Shown piece by piece: positions 29,182 to 36,623 of a stretch of DNA of 64,000 bases (position 1 is the stretch's first letter; every line of letters begins with the position of its first letter). The stretch is from NCBI GenBank assembly GCA_903847315.1, contig CAINDG010000041.1, positions 30,285 to 94,284 on the forward strand, read 5' to 3'. Made by a program: the position numbers and the translations under genes. The notes beneath the pieces are model-generated. The model saw nothing but the letters and a program-made list of their open reading frames with translations. It was not told where the DNA came from and ran no database searches. Source of the stretch: an uncultured Planctomycetota bacterium (GTDB lineage: Bacteria; Planctomycetota; Phycisphaerae; Sedimentisphaerales; UBA12454).

Positions 29182-30522
29182 ATGTTCTCAAAAATTCTCA
29201 TAGCCAACAGAGGCGAAATAGCATTAAGAATAATTCGTGCCTGCCGTGAGCTGGGCATCGAAACGGTTGTCGTCTATTCCGAGGCCGATAGAAACGCTTC
29301 ATATATCGAGCTTGCCGACGAGGCAATCTGCATCGGCCCGGCAAGTCCTGCACAAAGTTATCTTAATATCCCGGCGATAATCAGCGCCGCTGAAGTTGCC
29401 GATGTCGATGCGATTCATCCCGGCTACGGATTTCTCGCGGAGAACGCGCATTTTGCCCAGATATGTCTGGACTGCGGGATAGCGTTTATCGGTCCGCGGC
29501 CGGAGTCGATGAGAATGCTCGGCGATAAAGTCGCGGCAAGAGAACTTGCGAAAAAAGCGCACGTTCCGGTTGTGCCCGGCTCGGACGGCCAGATAAAAGA
29601 TGAAAAAGAAGCAATCAAACTCGCCAACAAAATCGGATATCCGGTAATAGTAAAAGCGGCGGCGGGCGGCGGCGGCAGGGGAATGAGAGTTGCCCATAAC
29701 GATATAAGTCTGCGAAACGCATTTGCGACGGCAAGGGCTGAGGCGGAGTCTGCGTTTAAGGACGGCACGGTCTATCTGGAAAAATATATTATTGAACCGC
29801 GGCACGTTGAGGTGCAGATTATGGCCGACAAGTCCGGCAACGCATTGCATTTTTTTGAACGCGACTGCTCCATTCAGCGAAGACATCAGAAATTGATTGA
29901 AGAATCGCCCTGTCCGATACTTGACGAACGCACACGAGAAGAATTATGCAAGGCGGCACTGAAGGTGATAAAGGAAGCGAAGTACGAAAATGCCGCGACA
30001 GTCGAATTTCTGCTCGACCGCAATAAGAAATTTTATTTTATCGAGGTTAATACGCGAATTCAGGTTGAACATCCTGTTACGGAAATGGTTACGGGAATCG
30101 ACCTGATAAAGATGCAGCTTCGCGTGGCCGGCGGACAGAATATTAATTTAAAGCAGAGAGACATAACGCACAGCGGCGTTGCGATAGAATGCCGGATTAA
30201 TGCTGAGGACCCGGACCGTAACTTTGCGCCGTGTCCGGGGAAAGTTGATAAGTTTATCCTGCCCGGCGGAATGGGCGTAAGGGTCGATACGCATATTTAT
30301 CAGGGCGCAGTAGTCACGCCATATTACGATTCGATGATTGCGAAATTGATTGTTCATCGGCCGACAAGAGAAGAGGCGATAATAACGATGAAACGCGCTT
30401 TAAGCGAATTTAGAATCGGGCCAATCAAGACTACGATTCCAGCCTGCTTCAAAATCCTCTCGCACAATATGTATCTTCAGAATAAAGTCGATACAAGTTT
30501 TATAGAGCAGCATCTTTCCTAA
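29182..30522 (+). CDS. accC: Biotin carboxylase
   Basis: [21 protein letters not shown]..., an ATP-grasp domain, GGGGRGMRV, and [14 protein letters not shown]. Confidence 0.95.
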
Positions 30523-31313
30523 CGGCCTATAGCCTCTTTAAACTGCGTCAGAAACGTTTTTATTTTTGCCGGAATGGATTTTTTATCGTTAAGATTTTCC
30601 TCTATGATTTTTACAATTCTTGAGCCGATGATAACACCGTCTGCGCCGGCTTTTGCAAGCTCCGCGGCGTGCTGCGGTTTGCTTACGCCAAAACCAACAC
30701 AAACCGGTACGTCAGTAATGGATTTTAATCTGCTTATAAGCGGCTTTATCATATCGGACAGGGTTTCTCTACCACCGGTTACACCTAAAAGCGAAACGGT
30801 GTAAATAAAACCTGTGCATTTTTCGGCGATTTTTTTGGCGCGCTCGGTTTCAGTGTTAGGCGTTATCATAAAAACGGTATCGAGGCCAGCTTTTCGGGCA
30901 GGGGCGTAAATTTCGTCAACATCGTCAATGCTCAAATCCGCGATAAGGACGCTGTTTACGCCGGCTCTCGCGAAATCGACAAAGAATTTTTCAGTGCCGT
31001 ACTGATAAATAAGGTTGTAATACATCAAAAGACCAATGGGGATATCCTTGTACGCTTTTATTTTTTTGATGAAGTCTTTTGCCTTTTCGATGTCCATACC
31101 GGCGGCAAGCGCGCGGATGTCAGCCTTTTGAATTGTCGGGCCGTCGGCAATCGGGTCTGAAAACGCTATGCCCAGTTCAAGGATATCAGCGCCACCGTCA
31201 ATAGCGGCTTTTACAATTTCAAGACTTGTATCAAAATCAGGGTCGCCTATAACAAAAAAAGGTATTAAGGCGGCTCGCTTTAGTTCGGCAAATGTTTGTT
31301 TATATGTTTTCAT
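30519..31313 (-). CDS. trpA: Tryptophan synthase alpha chain
   Basis: [28 protein letters not shown], and GFGVS. The start overlaps the trpB stop by 4 nt. Confidence 0.9.
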
Positions 31314-32485
31314 AGGGGCTTCCTGTTTCTTTCGACTATGTCAACGTCTTTGTCGCCTCTGCCGGAAAGATTTACCACGACAGTTGTGTCGGCGGGCAGT
31401 TTTCCCTTCTGGCTGTAAACCCAGGCGAGAGAATGCGAGCTTTCTAGCGCGGGCAGGATGCCTTCGCATTTTGTAAAGATATCGAAAATGTCGAGAACGT
31501 CTTTATCCTCGACAGCGACGTATTGCGCTCTGCCTGTATCTTTTAAAAGGCAGTGTTCGGGGCCGACGCCGGGATAATCAAGGCCGGCGGAGATGGATTC
31601 GGTATCGAGAATCTGACCTTCTTTGTTCTGCATAAGATACATTTTAGTGCCGTGCAGGATGCCGACTTTGCCGGCGTTGAGCGGGGCGGCGTGTTTGCCT
31701 GTTTTAATGCCTTTACCGGCCGGTTCTACGCCGACGAGTTTGACATTTTTATCATCGATAAATGCACTGAAGATTCCTATCGCATTGCTTCCGCCGCCGA
31801 CGCAGGCGGTAACGATGTCCGGCAATTTGCCGATTTTTTCAAGGCACTGCGCACGTGCTTCTATTCCGATACAGGACTGGAAATGTTTTACGATAGTCGG
31901 ATACGGATGCGGGCCGCAGGCGGTTCCGAACAAATAAAAAGTATCGGCGACGTTGGCCGTCCAGTAGCGAAGGGCCTCGTTGATGGCGTCTTTTAATGTT
32001 TCCGTTCCGCCTTTGACGGAAATGACTTCCGCTCCGCAGAGTCTCATTTTGTGGACGTTTACGCTCTGTCGTTCAATGTCAATTGCGCCCATAAATATTT
32101 TTGTCTGCATTCCGAATAACGCGCCAATCATAGATGTCGCAAGGCCGTGCTGGCCGGCGCCGGTTTCGGCGATGAGTTTTGTCTTGCCCATATATTTAGC
32201 GAGCAAACCCTGGCCGAGACAATTATTGACTTTGTGCGCTCCGCCGTGCAGGAGGTCTTCGCGTTTTATATAAACTTTAAAGCCGACAAGTTCGCTGAAA
32301 CGCGTAGCGTAATACAAAGGTGTCGGTCTGCCAGCGTAGTCGTGAGAAAGAACATCAAGCTCTGCGGTAAATTTTTTGTCTTTATAATATTTATAGAATG
32401 CCTTTTCCATTTCCTCAAGAGCCGGTATAAGCACTTCAGGGACGTAAAAGCCGCCGAATTGTCCGAATCTTCCGTTATGTTTCAT
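31310..32485 (-). CDS. trpB: Tryptophan synthase beta chain
   Basis: GRFGQFGGFYVPE, the PLP-lysine region LLHGGAHKVNN, and GGGSNAIG. Confidence 0.95.
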   Translation of the reverse strand: MKHNGRFGQFGGFYVPEVLIPALEEMEKAFYKYYKDKKFTAELDVLSHDYAGRPTPLYYATRFSELVGFKVYIKREDLLHGGAHKVNNCLGQGLLAKYMGKTKLIAETGAGQHGLATSMIGALFGMQTKIFMGAIDIERQSVNVHKMRLCGAEVISVKGGTETLKDAINEALRYWTANVADTFYLFGTACGPHPYPTIVKHFQSCIGIEARAQCLEKIGKLPDIVTACVGGGSNAIGIFSAFIDDKNVKLVGVEPAGKGIKTGKHAAPLNAGKVGILHGTKMYLMQNKEGQILDTESISAGLDYPGVGPEHCLLKDTGRAQYVAVEDKDVLDIFDIFTKCEGILPALESSHSLAWVYSQKGKLPADTTVVVNLSGRGDKDVDIVERNRKPL

Positions 32486-32516
32486 CCCGCACCTTCTTTT
32501 TATTCAAATTTTACCT

Positions 32517-33152
32517 TTATACGGTAACGCTTTTTATATTTTTGAAAAGCCTTGTCATTTTTCTGCGGTCTTTTTTGCCGGGCGAACTTTCTATTCCGCT
32601 GCAGACGTCGATGCCGTAAAAGCCCTGACCGATGGCCTCGATTACATTTTCCGGATTTATTCCGCCCGCCAGAAAAGTTCTGCCGAATACGTGGCCTGTA
32701 AGCTGCGGCAGAGTTCTCCAGTCGAATCTTTCTCCCGTTCCGCCGTAAAGGACCGGATGGAAAGCGTCCAGCAGCAGGGCGTCAGTGGTAAAGTTTTTTG
32801 CGTACTCGATATCTTTACCGTCTTTTATTCTTATAGCTTTTATAATCTGCGCGGACATATTGCTAAGCGACTGGCAAAATCCCGGTGTTTCGTCGCCGTG
32901 AAGCTGCACCCAGTCGAGCATTAAATCGCCGACGGTTTTGCGGATGGTTTCCGCGTCGGCGTTTACAAATACTCCGACTATGTGAACAAACGCAGGCAGC
33001 TTTATGATAATTTTTTCGGCTTCCTTCGGTTCGATAAATCTGGGACTTTTCGGATAAAAGTTAAAGCCGAGCAGGTCTGCGCCGAGTTGTACCGCAGCCG
33101 CGGCGTCTTCGACGTTTGTTATTCCGCATATTTTAACTTTCAGCACAGCCAT
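32517..33152 (-). CDS. trpF: Phosphoribosylanthranilate isomerase
   Basis: KVKICGITNVEDAAAAVQLGADLLGFNFYPKSPRFI, and the position within the operon. Confidence 0.85.
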   Translation of the reverse strand: MAVLKVKICGITNVEDAAAAVQLGADLLGFNFYPKSPRFIEPKEAEKIIIKLPAFVHIVGVFVNADAETIRKTVGDLMLDWVQLHGDETPGFCQSLSNMSAQIIKAIRIKDGKDIEYAKNFTTDALLLDAFHPVLYGGTGERFDWRTLPQLTGHVFGRTFLAGGINPENVIEAIGQGFYGIDVCSGIESSPGKKDRRKMTRLFKNIKSVTV

Positions 33153-34175
33153 TTAATTTTTCCTGTTTGAAATCTCAACAAGTTTTTCAAGACACTGGGC
33201 CGCATTGCCCGTATCGACTGATACAGCGGCTTTTTGGAATCCCTGATGCAGATTTTCGGCGAGGTCTGCGACCATTATAGCCGCTGAGGCGTTCAAAAGC
33301 ACCATATCCCGCACAGGGCCTTTGTTTTTGCCGTACAGAACGTCCTTTATCATTTTCGCGTTGTACTCGGCGTTGCTGCCGACAAGCTCGGCCATTTTCG
33401 GCGATTGAATTTCAAAATCTTTCGGATGAATTTCATAGGAGATTTTTTTATTATCTTTTAATTCGATAACTTTCGTGACTGCTGTAATACTTATTTCGTC
33501 AAGGCCGCTGCCGTGGACAATCATCGCACGTTTTAAGCCGAGAATTTTAAATGTCTCAGCGATTCTGTCCAAAAGCGACTCCTCGGGCACACCCATAACC
33601 TGAGCCTGTGCACCGGCAGGATTTGCGAGCGGGCCTAAAATATTAAACGCGGTGCGGAAATCGAGACTCTTTCTTATGGGCTGAACAAATTTCATCGCCG
33701 GATGATACATCGGCGCGAACATAAAACCTATATGCGCGTTTTCGATGCACTCTGCAACAACTTCAGGGCCGCAGTCAACTTTAACGCCCATTGCCTCAAG
33801 TACATCGGCTGAGCCGCATTTACTTGTAATGCCGCGGTTGCCGTGTTTTGCGACGTAAGCGCCCGCGCCGGCGGCGACAATCGCCGAGGCGGAGGAGACG
33901 TTGAAAGTTTTCAGCGGAGCTCCGCCGGTGCCGCAAGTATCGATAAGATTAGTAATTTTTGTGTGGACCTTTACAGCGTGGTCCCGCAGCGATTGAGCAA
34001 GTCCCGCGAATTCGCTCGGCATTGCCTTTTTCATTCTCATCGCCGCCAGAAAGGCCGCAATCTGAACCTCAGCAACATCGCCTTTGAATATAGTATCCAG
34101 CAGGTCTTTGGCCTGGTCGTATTTCAGGTCGCCGCCTTCGAGAAGGATTTCGAGATATTGAGTTATTTTCGTCAT
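33153..34175 (-). CDS. trpD: Anthranilate phosphoribosyltransferase
   Basis: DTCGTGGAPLKTFNVSSASAIVAAGAG and KHGNRGITSKCGSADVLE. Confidence 0.9.
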   Translation of the reverse strand: MTKITQYLEILLEGGDLKYDQAKDLLDTIFKGDVAEVQIAAFLAAMRMKKAMPSEFAGLAQSLRDHAVKVHTKITNLIDTCGTGGAPLKTFNVSSASAIVAAGAGAYVAKHGNRGITSKCGSADVLEAMGVKVDCGPEVVAECIENAHIGFMFAPMYHPAMKFVQPIRKSLDFRTAFNILGPLANPAGAQAQVMGVPEESLLDRIAETFKILGLKRAMIVHGSGLDEISITAVTKVIELKDNKKISYEIHPKDFEIQSPKMAELVGSNAEYNAKMIKDVLYGKNKGPVRDMVLLNASAAIMVADLAENLHQGFQKAAVSVDTGNAAQCLEKLVEISNRKN

Positions 34176-34810
34176 AACGCCACTCTCCTGTTCTGTGATG
34201 AAATTTTTAAAAGGTTCTGTATTATTTTTCCGCCAGCCGGGGTAAGGATACTTTCCGGATGAAACTGCATACCGAAAATCGGTTTTTGCTTATGCTCTAT
34301 TGCCATTACAATGCCCTCGTATTCCGCGGTTACCGTCAGGCAGTCAGGCACCTTGACCGCGCAAAGGCTGTGATACCTGCCAGCCTGCAGAGGGTTTTCC
34401 ACTCCTTCGAAGATTCCTTTTTCATTGTGCGTTACCTTCGAGGCCTTGCCGTGCATCACCTTCGGCGCATGGCTGATTGTGCCGCCGAAATATTGAATGA
34501 TTGCCTGATGGCCGAGACATACGCCGAATATGGGAAGCTTGTTCTGGAAATAGCCGATTGCCTCCAGAGTAACGCCCGCACTGGATGGATTGCCGGGACC
34601 GGGTGAAATAACCAGCAGGTCAGGCTTAAAATCTTCCGCAATTTTTTTAAGGCTTTCCAGCGGCGTATCTGCGCGATAAACCTTTGCGACGCAGTCTCTT
34701 TTGCAAAAGTCATCCACAAGATTATATGTGAATGAGTCAAAATTATCTATGAAGAGGACTTTTGGTTCGGCCAGGCTCACCACAGGTGAATTTTGGTTCG
34801 TATCGTTCAT
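34172..34810 (-). CDS. trpG: Anthranilate synthase component II (glutamine amidotransferase)
   Basis: The class-I GATase motifs are FGVCLGHQAI and HPES. Confidence 0.85.
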   Translation of the reverse strand: MNDTNQNSPVVSLAEPKVLFIDNFDSFTYNLVDDFCKRDCVAKVYRADTPLESLKKIAEDFKPDLLVISPGPGNPSSAGVTLEAIGYFQNKLPIFGVCLGHQAIIQYFGGTISHAPKVMHGKASKVTHNEKGIFEGVENPLQAGRYHSLCAVKVPDCLTVTAEYEGIVMAIEHKQKPIFGMQFHPESILTPAGGKIIQNLLKISSQNRRVAL

Positions 34811-34812
34811 AG

Positions 34813-36417
34813 TTATCTCCCCCTTACTGCCCGCAGGCAGGAATTTGCTTTGTGCTGCGTTTCCTCGAACTCTGTTTTCGGTACGCTGTCATAGACGACG
34901 CCTCCGCCTGCACGGATATAGGCCGTATGGTCTTTTACCTGCAGCGAGCGTATAGTTATGCAACTGTCAAATTGGCCGTCAACGGTTAAATACATCACCG
35001 CGCCGCCGTAGTAACCGCGTTTGTTTTTTTCGAGCTGACGGATAATTTTCATCGCCTCAATTTTCGGCGCACCGGTAAGCGTGCCCATATTCATCGTGGC
35101 AAGATAAGCGTTTAAAGCGTCAAATTCATCGGCCAAAATTCCCTTTACGTTGCTGACAAGGTGCATTACCGATTCGTATTTTTCCACAATGAGAAGTTCA
35201 TTGACTATTCGCGAACCTTTTTGCGTAACTCTTGCGATATCGTTTCTGGCGAGGTCAACCAGCATCATATGCTCGGCAAGCTCTTTTCTGTCGAGTTTCA
35301 ATTCCGCCTCGTATCGAAAATCTGTGTCGGGGTCGATTTTGCCGTTGATTTTTCCTCGCGGCTTTGTTCCAGCGATAGGCCGGATTTCAACCTGACGGAT
35401 TTTTGTTCCGCTCACGCGCAGGTTAAGCTCAGGGCTTGCCCCCGTCAAAATGGTGCTGGGCGTATTAATGTAAAACATATAAGGCGATGGATTAAGCAGC
35501 CGAAGTCTTTTATAAACATCGAGCGGCTCATCGGGGCAGGGCTCTATAATAGTTCTGCTGGGAACGACCTGGAAAATATCGCCGTCAACGATATGTTTTT
35601 TGGCAATCTCTACCATTTTTATATATTCAGCCAGTTCGGTATCGGTGCCGGCTTTGGGCAGCGGACCGGTATATCTTACAGGCTTTGGCATTTCTGCTTT
35701 TAATGTCTCAAAGTAATAATCAAAACAGCTTTCGGCCTCCGTTATAATTTGATTTTTATCGTCGTTGGTAATAATTACATTGACAACAACGTAAGCCTTT
35801 TGCGTTTTATGGTCCATCAGGAAAATATTGTCGGCGAAATACATTTCATAATCGGGCACATCGAGCAGGGCATTTTTATTCGCGGGCAGTTTTTCAAACT
35901 GGTCGATAAAGTCATAACTTATCGCACCAAACAAACCGCAGGTAACGCGGAACGGTTTTCCCGAAAGTTCAAAAGCGAAATTGACCGCCCTGATTACGTC
36001 CATCTGATTAACCGCTTTTAACCTTGCCTGTTCGTCGATAACATCGTGGTCGAGACTGAGCCGGCCCGTGATGCGGTCTGTTTCAAATTTTATTTCTTTG
36101 CAGAAGTTAAATCTGTCGCGGCCGACGGTTGCGAAATATTTTATCATTCTTTTTCCGGTCGGACTTAGCGCAACGATTTGAAATTCCGCGCCTTTGCCGG
36201 CCAGATATAACGCCGGGTTTGCCGTACCGAAGGTTAATTCGCCTTCGTTTCCTTCGGCAAGGTGGTCTTTTGACTCGAGCAGGCAGCAATTCTGTTTTCT
36301 GCCGTAGTCGCTTAATTTCGCAAAGAAATCAACCGGCTCGATCGCGTCAATCTGCCTGACCAGCGGGACGATTTGGCCCACTTTCGCATCACTAATTTTC
36401 TGACTTAATTCTGTCAT
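34813..36417 (-). CDS. trpE: Anthranilate synthase component I
   Basis: Chorismate-binding motifs are present (GTLTGAPK, GYYGGAV). I chose the ATG at 36417 (MTELSQ) because the longer track ORF would run through the attenuator terminator. Confidence 0.9.
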   Translation of the reverse strand: MTELSQKISDAKVGQIVPLVRQIDAIEPVDFFAKLSDYGRKQNCCLLESKDHLAEGNEGELTFGTANPALYLAGKGAEFQIVALSPTGKRMIKYFATVGRDRFNFCKEIKFETDRITGRLSLDHDVIDEQARLKAVNQMDVIRAVNFAFELSGKPFRVTCGLFGAISYDFIDQFEKLPANKNALLDVPDYEMYFADNIFLMDHKTQKAYVVVNVIITNDDKNQIITEAESCFDYYFETLKAEMPKPVRYTGPLPKAGTDTELAEYIKMVEIAKKHIVDGDIFQVVPSRTIIEPCPDEPLDVYKRLRLLNPSPYMFYINTPSTILTGASPELNLRVSGTKIRQVEIRPIAGTKPRGKINGKIDPDTDFRYEAELKLDRKELAEHMMLVDLARNDIARVTQKGSRIVNELLIVEKYESVMHLVSNVKGILADEFDALNAYLATMNMGTLTGAPKIEAMKIIRQLEKNKRGYYGGAVMYLTVDGQFDSCITIRSLQVKDHTAYIRAGGGVVYDSVPKTEFEETQHKANSCLRAVRGR

Positions 36418-36445
36418 CGTTTCTTCTCGCAATATAATAGTATAC

Positions 36446-36479
36446 ATAAAAAAACGGCCTGTCGCTACCGACAGGCCGT
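36446..36479 (-). terminator. Intrinsic terminator (segments 3:4) of the trp attenuator
   Basis: On the minus strand the sequence is ACGGCCUGUCG-GUAG-CGACAGGCCGU followed by a U-run. It ends about 30 nt upstream of the trpE ATG. Confidence 0.7.
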
Positions 36480-36521
36480 GAAAGTTCATTTTATATAGTT
36501 TTTGGGCAAAAAGGGCTCACA

Positions 36522-36543
36522 GCCTGTCAGTTATTTGACAAGC
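36522..36543 (-). promoter_or_regulatory. Attenuator segments 1 and 2 (pause hairpin and antiterminator arm)
   Basis: Segment 1, GCUUGUCA (36536-36543), pairs with segment 2, UGACAGGC (36522-36529). Segment 2 (GACAGGCUG) can alternatively pair with the terminator 5' arm CGGCCUGUC. Confidence 0.6.
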
Positions 36544-36584
36544 CACCACCAACCAAAATAATAGTTAGAATGATTGTGAACCAT
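36531..36584 (-). CDS. trp leader peptide MVHNHSNYYFGWWWLVK
   Basis: 17 codons with three consecutive TGG codons immediately before segment 1. The stop lies in the 1:2 loop. This is my own translation; the ORF is too short for the track. Confidence 0.6.
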   Translation of the reverse strand: MVHNHSNYYFGWWWLVK

Positions 36585-36594
36585 AATTAACTAA

Positions 36595-36623
36595 ATAATA
36601 CCAAAAGAACGCGTTTTTGTCAA
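36595..36623 (-). promoter_or_regulatory. Sigma70-like promoter of the trp operon
   Basis: On the minus strand: TTGACA (36623-36618), 17-nt spacer, TATTAT (36600-36595). The -10 element ends only 10 nt before the leader ATG. Confidence 0.55.

Follow-up and report, generated by a model that had tools for sequence, protein, structure and literature searches.

A probable ribosome-mediated attenuator with a near-leaderless leader peptide upstream of the trpEGDFBA operon of a Sedimentisphaerales (Planctomycetota) bacterium

The control of tryptophan (Trp) biosynthesis by ribosome-mediated attenuation follows the classical model of Yanofsky for the Escherichia coli trp leader, trpL (Rfam Trp_leader, RF00513), where a short open reading frame (ORF) with tandem Trp codons, whose stop codon lies near segment 2, is coupled to the mutually exclusive helices 1:2, 2:3, and 3:4, and an intrinsic terminator precedes trpE. 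In the Bacteroidetes, which organisms largely lack Shine–Dalgarno (SD)-led initiation, a Trp-rich mini-ORF and a terminator before the trp genes make up the leader motif of the Rfam entry Bacteroid-trp. Leaderless versions have been described as well: in the alphaproteobacterium Sinorhizobium meliloti, whose leader peptide of 14 residues serves the ribosome-mediated attenuation of trpE(G), the 5' end of the attenuator RNA is the ATG of trpL (PMC7298713); and in Corynebacterium diphtheriae a leaderless start was mapped for the ilvB leader peptide, the same study not having mapped the transcription start of the trp leader, which contains a WWW motif in MTNMNAHNWWWRA (PMC5784534). Here we describe a trp leader located in a stretch of 64,000 nt (contig CAINDG010000041.1, positions 30,285 to 94,284; henceforth the window) from an uncultured planctomycete, on whose minus strand, to which all coordinates refer unless another strand is indicated, every one of the E. 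coli elements just named precedes trpE. The Phycisphaerae leader has three Trp codons where the E. coli one has two, and departs from it further in the apparent absence of a 5' untranslated region, in the lack of an SD sequence, in an antiterminator of 15 bp, and in an additional helix, P0, on its 5' end. With the S. meliloti leader it shares the short and, here, probably leaderless ORF, but it stands before a six-gene operon rather than trpE(G) alone, and the roles in trans of the leader RNA and peptide are documented in S. meliloti; with the actinobacterial leaders (the trp, ilvB, and leu leaders of Corynebacterium and Streptomyces) it shares the classical terminator/antiterminator logic, and the WWW motif with that of C. 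diphtheriae, though both the lineage and the sequences are unrelated.

We estimate at roughly 85% the probability that the region controls the trpEGDFBA operon of a bacterium of the Sedimentisphaerales (Phycisphaerae, Planctomycetota) by classical ribosome-mediated transcription attenuation, as the initial annotation had proposed; which reading is supported by a conserved leader ORF, by covarying 1:2, 2:3, and 3:4 pairings, and by a geometry suited to a stalled ribosome. The 17-codon ORF with three consecutive TGG codons described in that annotation is indeed present (Table 1), and is the sole ATG-started ORF of 8–45 codons containing WW on either strand of the 64 kb, the chance expectation in shuffled sequence of that length being 0.12 WWW ORFs. 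Since the six Trp enzymes encoded downstream contain only 4 Trp in 1952 residues (0.2%), the short upstream ORF is enriched in the codon for the amino acid that the operon produces.

The competing helices lie where a classical attenuator would have them. Segment 1 begins in the last of the Trp codons and pairs with segment 2 (-11.0 kcal/mol for this helix alone), with the UAA stop codon in the 6-nt loop between them, much as first described. The terminator, likewise recognized from the outset, is an 11-bp stem (36479-36469 with 36464-36454) containing 8 G-C pairs and closed by the loop GUAG, has an energy of about -21.9 to -22.5 kcal/mol, and is followed by a run of seven U whose end lies 29 nt before the trpE ATG, the earlier figure having been about 30 nt. 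Because the upstream neighbour, ahcY, is oriented divergently, this terminator ends no other gene. As for the antiterminator, the pairing of segment 2 with the 5' arm of the terminator stood, whereas the length of 9 bp originally assigned to it did not: those 9 bp (-13.6 kcal/mol) are the core of a 15-bp helix (36531-36517 with 36481-36467) of -24.5 kcal/mol, which helix accordingly shares bases with the terminator. The energies are similar to those of the E. coli trp attenuator, and the leader as a whole folds with a z-score of -6.6 against dinucleotide shuffles. P0, which the first inspection had missed, is formed by the first leader codons with a stretch 3' of segment 2 and turns the 1:2 hairpin, which it closes, into a single long structure, the two helices together amounting to -19.4 kcal/mol in the window; as the 3' strand of P0 and the antiterminator overlap, this helix belongs to the anti-antiterminator. 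Just 3' of P0, at 36507-36514, the P0/1:2 hairpin is followed by CUUUUUG, and U-rich tracts occur in several relatives of the window's clade; the arrangement is reminiscent of the hairpin-dependent pausing by which ribosome and polymerase are synchronized in E. coli trpL.

Table 1. Features of the trp leader and of the operon downstream, in coordinates of the window.
Feature	Coordinates	Strand	Remarks
-35 hexamer TTGACA	36618..36623	-	Perfect; its end lies 33 nt before the leader ATG
Extended -10, TGG + TATTAT	36595..36603	-	Hexamer 36600-36595; the 17-nt spacer ends in TGG
Leader ORF (trpL-like), MVHNHSNYYFGWWWLVK + stop	36531..36584	-	17 codons; ATG start at 36584
P0 5' strand, GGUUCACA	36575..36582	-	Includes the G of AUG; pairs in the minimum-free-energy fold with UGUGAGCC (36521-36514)
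Three tandem TGG	36543..36551	-	Proposed sensing site, within the leader ORF
Segment 1, GCUUGUCA	36536..36543	-	Begins in the last Trp codon; pairs with segment 2
Segment 2 + start of 2', ACUGACAGGCUGUGA	36517..36531	-	Partner of segment 1; antiterminator 5' strand; overlaps the P0 3' strand (36514-36521)
Segment 2 core, UGACAGGC	36529-36522	-	Pairs with segment 1
Segment 3 + 5' flank, UCACGGCCUGUCGGU	36467..36481	-	Antiterminator 3' strand; contains the terminator 5' arm (36479-36469)
Segment 4 + U7	36447..36464	-	Terminator 3' arm 36464-36454; U7 36453-36447
trpE	34813..36417	-	First gene under the proposed regulation; 534 aa; NCBIfam match; ATG 36417-36415
trpG	34172-34810	-	NCBIfam match
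trpD	33153-34175	-	NCBIfam match
trpF	32517-33152	-	NCBIfam match; stand-alone, 211 aa
trpB	31310-32485	-	NCBIfam match
trpA	30519-31313	-	NCBIfam match

The initial annotation had suggested examining whether the WWW mini-ORF and compensatory base changes are conserved in relatives, and both were found. The loci were picked by TrpE similarity only, with no bias toward the leader, in three samples: 24 loci from genomes representing Phycisphaerae species (TrpE identity 65-72%), 10 contigs with closer TrpE homologues (73-91%), and 80 metagenome loci (69-90%), 75 of them with enough upstream sequence. A mini-ORF with a Trp cluster preceded trpE in 22 of the 24 genome loci at the first scan, the other two carrying WRR or WTWRW variants; in all 10 of the close relatives; and in 74 of the 75 metagenome loci, at a distance to trpE of some 110-230 nt in most loci and up to some 390 nt. 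The pooled samples yielded 108 leaders, 96 of them distinct. In all 96 the ATG, the frame, the Trp cluster, and a stop codon adjoining segment 2 are kept, at ORF lengths of 13 to 31 codons; the cluster is WWW in 66 and WW, WWR, or an interrupted form in the remainder. A hairpin followed by a T-run of 5-9 is present in each of the 108, the U-tract lying 18-213 nt (median 52) before trpE. The same layout occurs in a more distant Phycisphaerae locus with a 41%-identical TrpE (L034), and was not found in the Planctomycetia-labelled loci (TrpE 35-48% identical).

Covariation was assessed in two alignments, one of the 19 sequences of the window's own clade (A3) and one of the 34 sequences of the main clade (A4), which clades we aligned apart because a single MAFFT alignment of all of them set P0 in differing registers; as a control, the antiterminator partners were slid by 1-3 columns. 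In the window clade the terminator was 99% paired and had changed on both sides at 5 of its 11 pairs; in the main clade it was 90.6% paired with compensatory changes, the losses there falling on loop-proximal pairs that MAFFT misaligns. The 1:2 helix was about 95% paired in the former (double-sided changes at 2 of 6 pairs) and 94.8% in the latter (3 of 9). As for the antiterminator, the 15 bp of the window clade were 97.9% paired, versus 30-46% for the slid partners, and included three compensatory pairs, while the 10-bp core in the main clade was 95% paired with four. For P0, pairing reached 83% among the sequences of the window clade, where one pair is compensatory; its main-clade counterpart, a 12-bp helix of GCAAAUUAACCGC with GCGGUAAUUUGC, is 96% paired, and one of its U-A pairs is replaced by G-C in 7 sequences and the neighbouring pair by C-G in 2.

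The promoter TTGACA-17-TATTAT reported at first was found at its position (36623-36595), as was the leader ATG 10 nt after the -10 hexamer, the intervening TTAGTTAATT containing no purine-rich SD. The near-leaderless reading is strengthened by the fixed spacing from promoter to ATG and by the lack of an SD across the relatives. A perfect TTGACA, on which element we anchored the search because a filter demanding A at the second position of the -10 missed the TTTAAT of the main clade, occurs in 87 of the 96 distinct leaders, its end being separated from the leader ATG by 29-35 nt (mode 32); the -10 found at the same place reads TGGTTTAAT, TGGTATTAT, or TGGTATAAT, and lies 6-12 nt (mode 9) from that ATG. 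SD-like 4-mers precede only 3 of the 96 leaders versus 60 of 92 trpE starts and 19 of the 30 long ORFs of the window, the frequency in random 20-mers being 15%; therefore, these organisms do use SD sequences, and the leader is specifically devoid of one, as is expected of a leaderless mRNA in an organism that otherwise employs them. The transcript would thus start at the leader AUG or a few nt before it, giving the ribosome a leaderless or near-leaderless mRNA to translate. Such a trp leader is less unusual than the initial annotation had supposed, S. meliloti trpL and the C. diphtheriae ilvB leader being leaderless already. The fixed spacing together with the missing SD would suit these leaders naturally to a test of leaderless initiation beyond the Actinobacteria, Deinococcus, and the Alphaproteobacteria. 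Elsewhere in the window, two ORFs of 690 aa (63423, minus strand) and 79 aa (18280, plus strand) are likewise preceded by a perfect TTGACA that a 17-nt spacer separates from a -10-like hexamer, with the ATG 7-10 nt farther on, so that the organism may have many leaderless mRNAs.

The in-silico folding of the alternative structures, another of the verifications that had been recommended, was restricted to the RNA existing before segment 4 is made, with some 30 nt masked as the ribosome, the footprint sizes being assumed; and under those masks the switch behaved as proposed. A mask on the Trp codons let upstream sequence capture at least 6 nt of segment 3 in every one of the 96 leaders; in the window leader, with the mask on the stop codon, 0 nt were captured. 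With these footprints, then, the 1:2 helix is positioned so that a stalled ribosome disrupts it, while one at the stop codon masks segment 2. The equilibrium fold of the full-length masked leader, which still gave the terminator, was rejected as a test since the decision is kinetic.

We infer from these elements the following response to Trp. A strong sigma-70-type promoter would start the transcript at, or a few nt before, the AUG of the 17-codon leader. If charged tRNA-Trp were scarce, the ribosome would stall on the three UGG codons and cover segment 1, whereupon segment 2, left free, would pair with segment 3 as the 15-bp antiterminator once the latter was made, no terminator would form, and the polymerase would read into trpE. 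If Trp were plentiful, the ribosome would reach the UAA in the 1:2 loop and cover segment 2, so that 3:4 would form and the 11-bp hairpin with its U7 would terminate transcription 29 nt before trpE. If no ribosome were loaded, the long closed hairpin, in which P0 lengthens 1:2 by joining the first four codons (the G of the AUG among them) to the sequence on the 3' side of segment 2, would lock segment 2 away and lead to termination by default; and that same hairpin would probably keep further ribosomes from initiating at the 5' end as well.

Several observations weigh against this interpretation. The sequences compared are related, so that the shuffle controls overstate significance, and we have relied on the slid-partner controls as the safer ones. 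In 34 of the 96 models segment 3 found a partner even when the ribosome occupied the stop codon, again under assumed footprints; and the free truncated RNA formed the antiterminator at equilibrium in 55 of 96 leaders, which implies that the translation-free off state must depend on the co-transcriptional order, P0 and 1:2 being the first to form, just as the E. coli model has it. In about a quarter of the leaders CGG (Arg) replaces TGG at one or two codons (WWR in 13, WRR in 2, WTWRW in 3; among them L015-L018, L022, L083, L088, L089, L092, L094, L099, L100, L140, and L163), two of them being left with a single Trp, while the GG that opens segment 1 is retained; such leaders may sense Trp more weakly or differently, or may sense Arg as well. 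Finally, none of the RNA runs searched was found to hold the window, and in one relative (L023) a single metatranscriptome contig extends from the promoter into trpE at a depth of 2.8, which contig could represent DNA or read-through.

The P0 helix invites a further proposal, which we put forward tentatively and with appreciable doubt: P0 could act as a gate, such that only a ribosome loading on the 5'-terminal AUG before some 70-80 nt had been transcribed could translate the leader, the 5' end being sequestered thereafter. Were that the case, each transcript would be read by one sensing ribosome, the operon would be off by default whenever transcription and translation became uncoupled, and the terminated RNA, with its 5' end protected, could persist as a small RNA; the gate would add a new element to the design of leaderless attenuators and be direct genomic evidence of tight transcription–translation coupling in a planctomycete lineage. 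To our knowledge no helix of the P0 type has been described for S. meliloti trpL.

Among the alternatives, the one that survives best would leave the attenuator working as described and add functions in trans for its products, either the terminated RNA of some 137 nt as a small RNA or the leader peptide as a micro-protein. That RNA would be highly structured, with its 5' end paired (P0, P1, and the terminator together, -41.9 kcal/mol), and the leaderless trpL of S. meliloti, with the trans functions of rnTrpL and peTrpL, constitutes a precedent (PMC7298713, PMC6614838). The N-terminal motif MRQINRKN, moreover, is conserved in the main clade, which might point to a functional peptide; yet that conservation is accounted for by the P0 pairing, whose compensatory changes reveal a constraint on the first codons, and the peptide of the window clade differs (MVHNHSNYYFG). 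We regard such additional roles as rather unlikely.

Much less probable still is that the hairpins are a Trp switch read by something other than a ribosome, such as a T-box for tRNA-Trp, a TRAP-like protein, or a small-molecule riboswitch, the mini-ORF being incidental. A terminator/antiterminator pair would suit any attenuation mechanism, and the constraint of P0 on the 5' part of the ORF means that some of the peptide conservation reflects RNA structure and not coding; but the start, frame, Trp cluster, and stop are kept in the 96 distinct leaders in spite of the variable ORF length, and the location of the Trp codons immediately 5' of segment 1 and of the stop adjoining segment 2 would matter only to a ribosome. 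Furthermore, neither a T-box nor any other Rfam family was matched in the window region (E up to 10) or in nine relatives, and no tandem array of GAG/UAG triplets was noticed by eye, no formal scan having been made. Translational control, in which the leader structures would modulate the access of ribosomes to trpE or a leader–trpE coupling while the hairpin and U-tract failed to terminate, is hardly tenable: that in some relatives as many as 213 nt separate the U-tract from trpE would accord with it, but the hairpin is a canonical intrinsic terminator that recurs with its T-run in every relative, and that ends upstream of trpE without taking in the trpE SD.

As to the relationship of this leader to the proteobacterial ones, the TrpE of the window is of the proteobacterial type (NF010079, with a score above the cut-off). 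The Rfam scan of the window region retrieved no relevant family at E values up to 10, which outcome would include RF00513, presumably a part of Rfam release 15, and the nine relatives had no match, including none to Bacteroid-trp, at the gathering score; from the latter motif the present leader differs also in belonging to an organism that uses SD sequences for its ordinary genes. Nor did that same gathering score yield a match in three gammaproteobacterial loci whose trp leaders are obvious; the absence of a match therefore says only that the family is uncurated, and a distant common ancestry is possible. The nearest gammaproteobacterial trp leaders, unlike those of the Phycisphaerae, carry the SD motif AAGG and lack a TTGACA at constant spacing, which difference argues that the leaderless design was not simply inherited along with the proteobacterial-type TrpE. 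In a locus of Pseudoalteromonas fenneropenaei (L037:3661-3960), two tandem WWW leader ORFs, each with its own terminator hairpin and at least one with an AAGG SD motif, lie upstream of trpE in what looks like a double attenuator.

In our full-text literature searches we found no paper on trp attenuation in the Planctomycetes or Phycisphaerae, an earlier mention being possible in the many surveys in subscription journals that those searches left uncovered; and we know of almost nothing documented on cis-regulatory RNAs in the Planctomycetota, whose order Sedimentisphaerales is mostly known from metagenomes. The comparative evidence makes it well supported that the leader represents a strongly conserved new instance of a well-known attenuator class, absent from Rfam and from the literature searched; its twists on the classical design, all modest, are the three Trp codons, the probably leaderless leader, the 15-bp antiterminator, and the helix pairing the 5' end. 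A widely conserved regulatory RNA family of some 100 distinct sequences could enter the annotation pipelines, whose gene callers at present pass over the leader or let trpE run on through the terminator. In addition, since leader-peptide attenuation needs ribosomes close behind the RNA polymerase, the conservation of these leaders argues, from sequence alone, for transcription–translation coupling in this planctomycete class; such coupling is debated for the Planctomycetota.

Downstream of the leader the genes follow in the order trpE-G-D-F-B-A (30519-36417), an operon without trpC, which gene must therefore be located elsewhere. The 534-aa length of TrpE agrees with that of most database homologues (531-534 aa), which cover it in full. 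An upstream in-frame ATG at 36489, which would give a protein of 558 aa, was rejected as the trpE start both because of those homologue lengths and because the extension crosses the terminator; five homologues of 543-572 aa (P0019, P0027, P0029, P0031, and P0041) probably share a start miscalled in this manner (36418-36489 in the window).

Regarding the host, the metagenome-assembled genomes that encode TrpE homologues of 80-91% identity bear the names Sedimentisphaerales, Phycisphaerae, or Planctomycetes, and some of these homologues lie on contigs several hundred kb long; pond metagenome assemblies contain sequences near-identical to the window. These homologues, along with the taxonomic placement of the Sedimentisphaerales within the PVC group, agree with the earlier PVC-like assignment, here narrowed to Planctomycetota, Phycisphaerae, Sedimentisphaerales. 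Six contigs from metagenome-assembled genomes labelled DPANN (Nanohalarchaeota, Woesearchaeota, and Nanoarchaeota; L025-L028, L030, and L036) encode a TrpE that is 49-54% identical to the Phycisphaerae type and nearer to it than any proteobacterial match, at loci without a Trp leader; gene transfer or mis-binning could explain them.

Among the metagenome loci selected by TrpE, L136 (870-1200) is the sole one with neither a Trp leader nor a terminator in the 330 nt before trpE, its upstream sequence being unrelated, A+T-rich, and furnished with short repeats. In several relatives, among them L082 (1325-1470) and L089 (1343-1470), an insertion of some 100 nt separates the U-tract from trpE, long gaps being present in L100 and L102 as well; which insertion ends in 14-bp inverted repeats, ATCC[C/G]GTTAGACCT ... 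AGGTCTAACGGGAT, that are exact in L089 and have one mismatch in L082, and it looks like a miniature inverted-repeat element.

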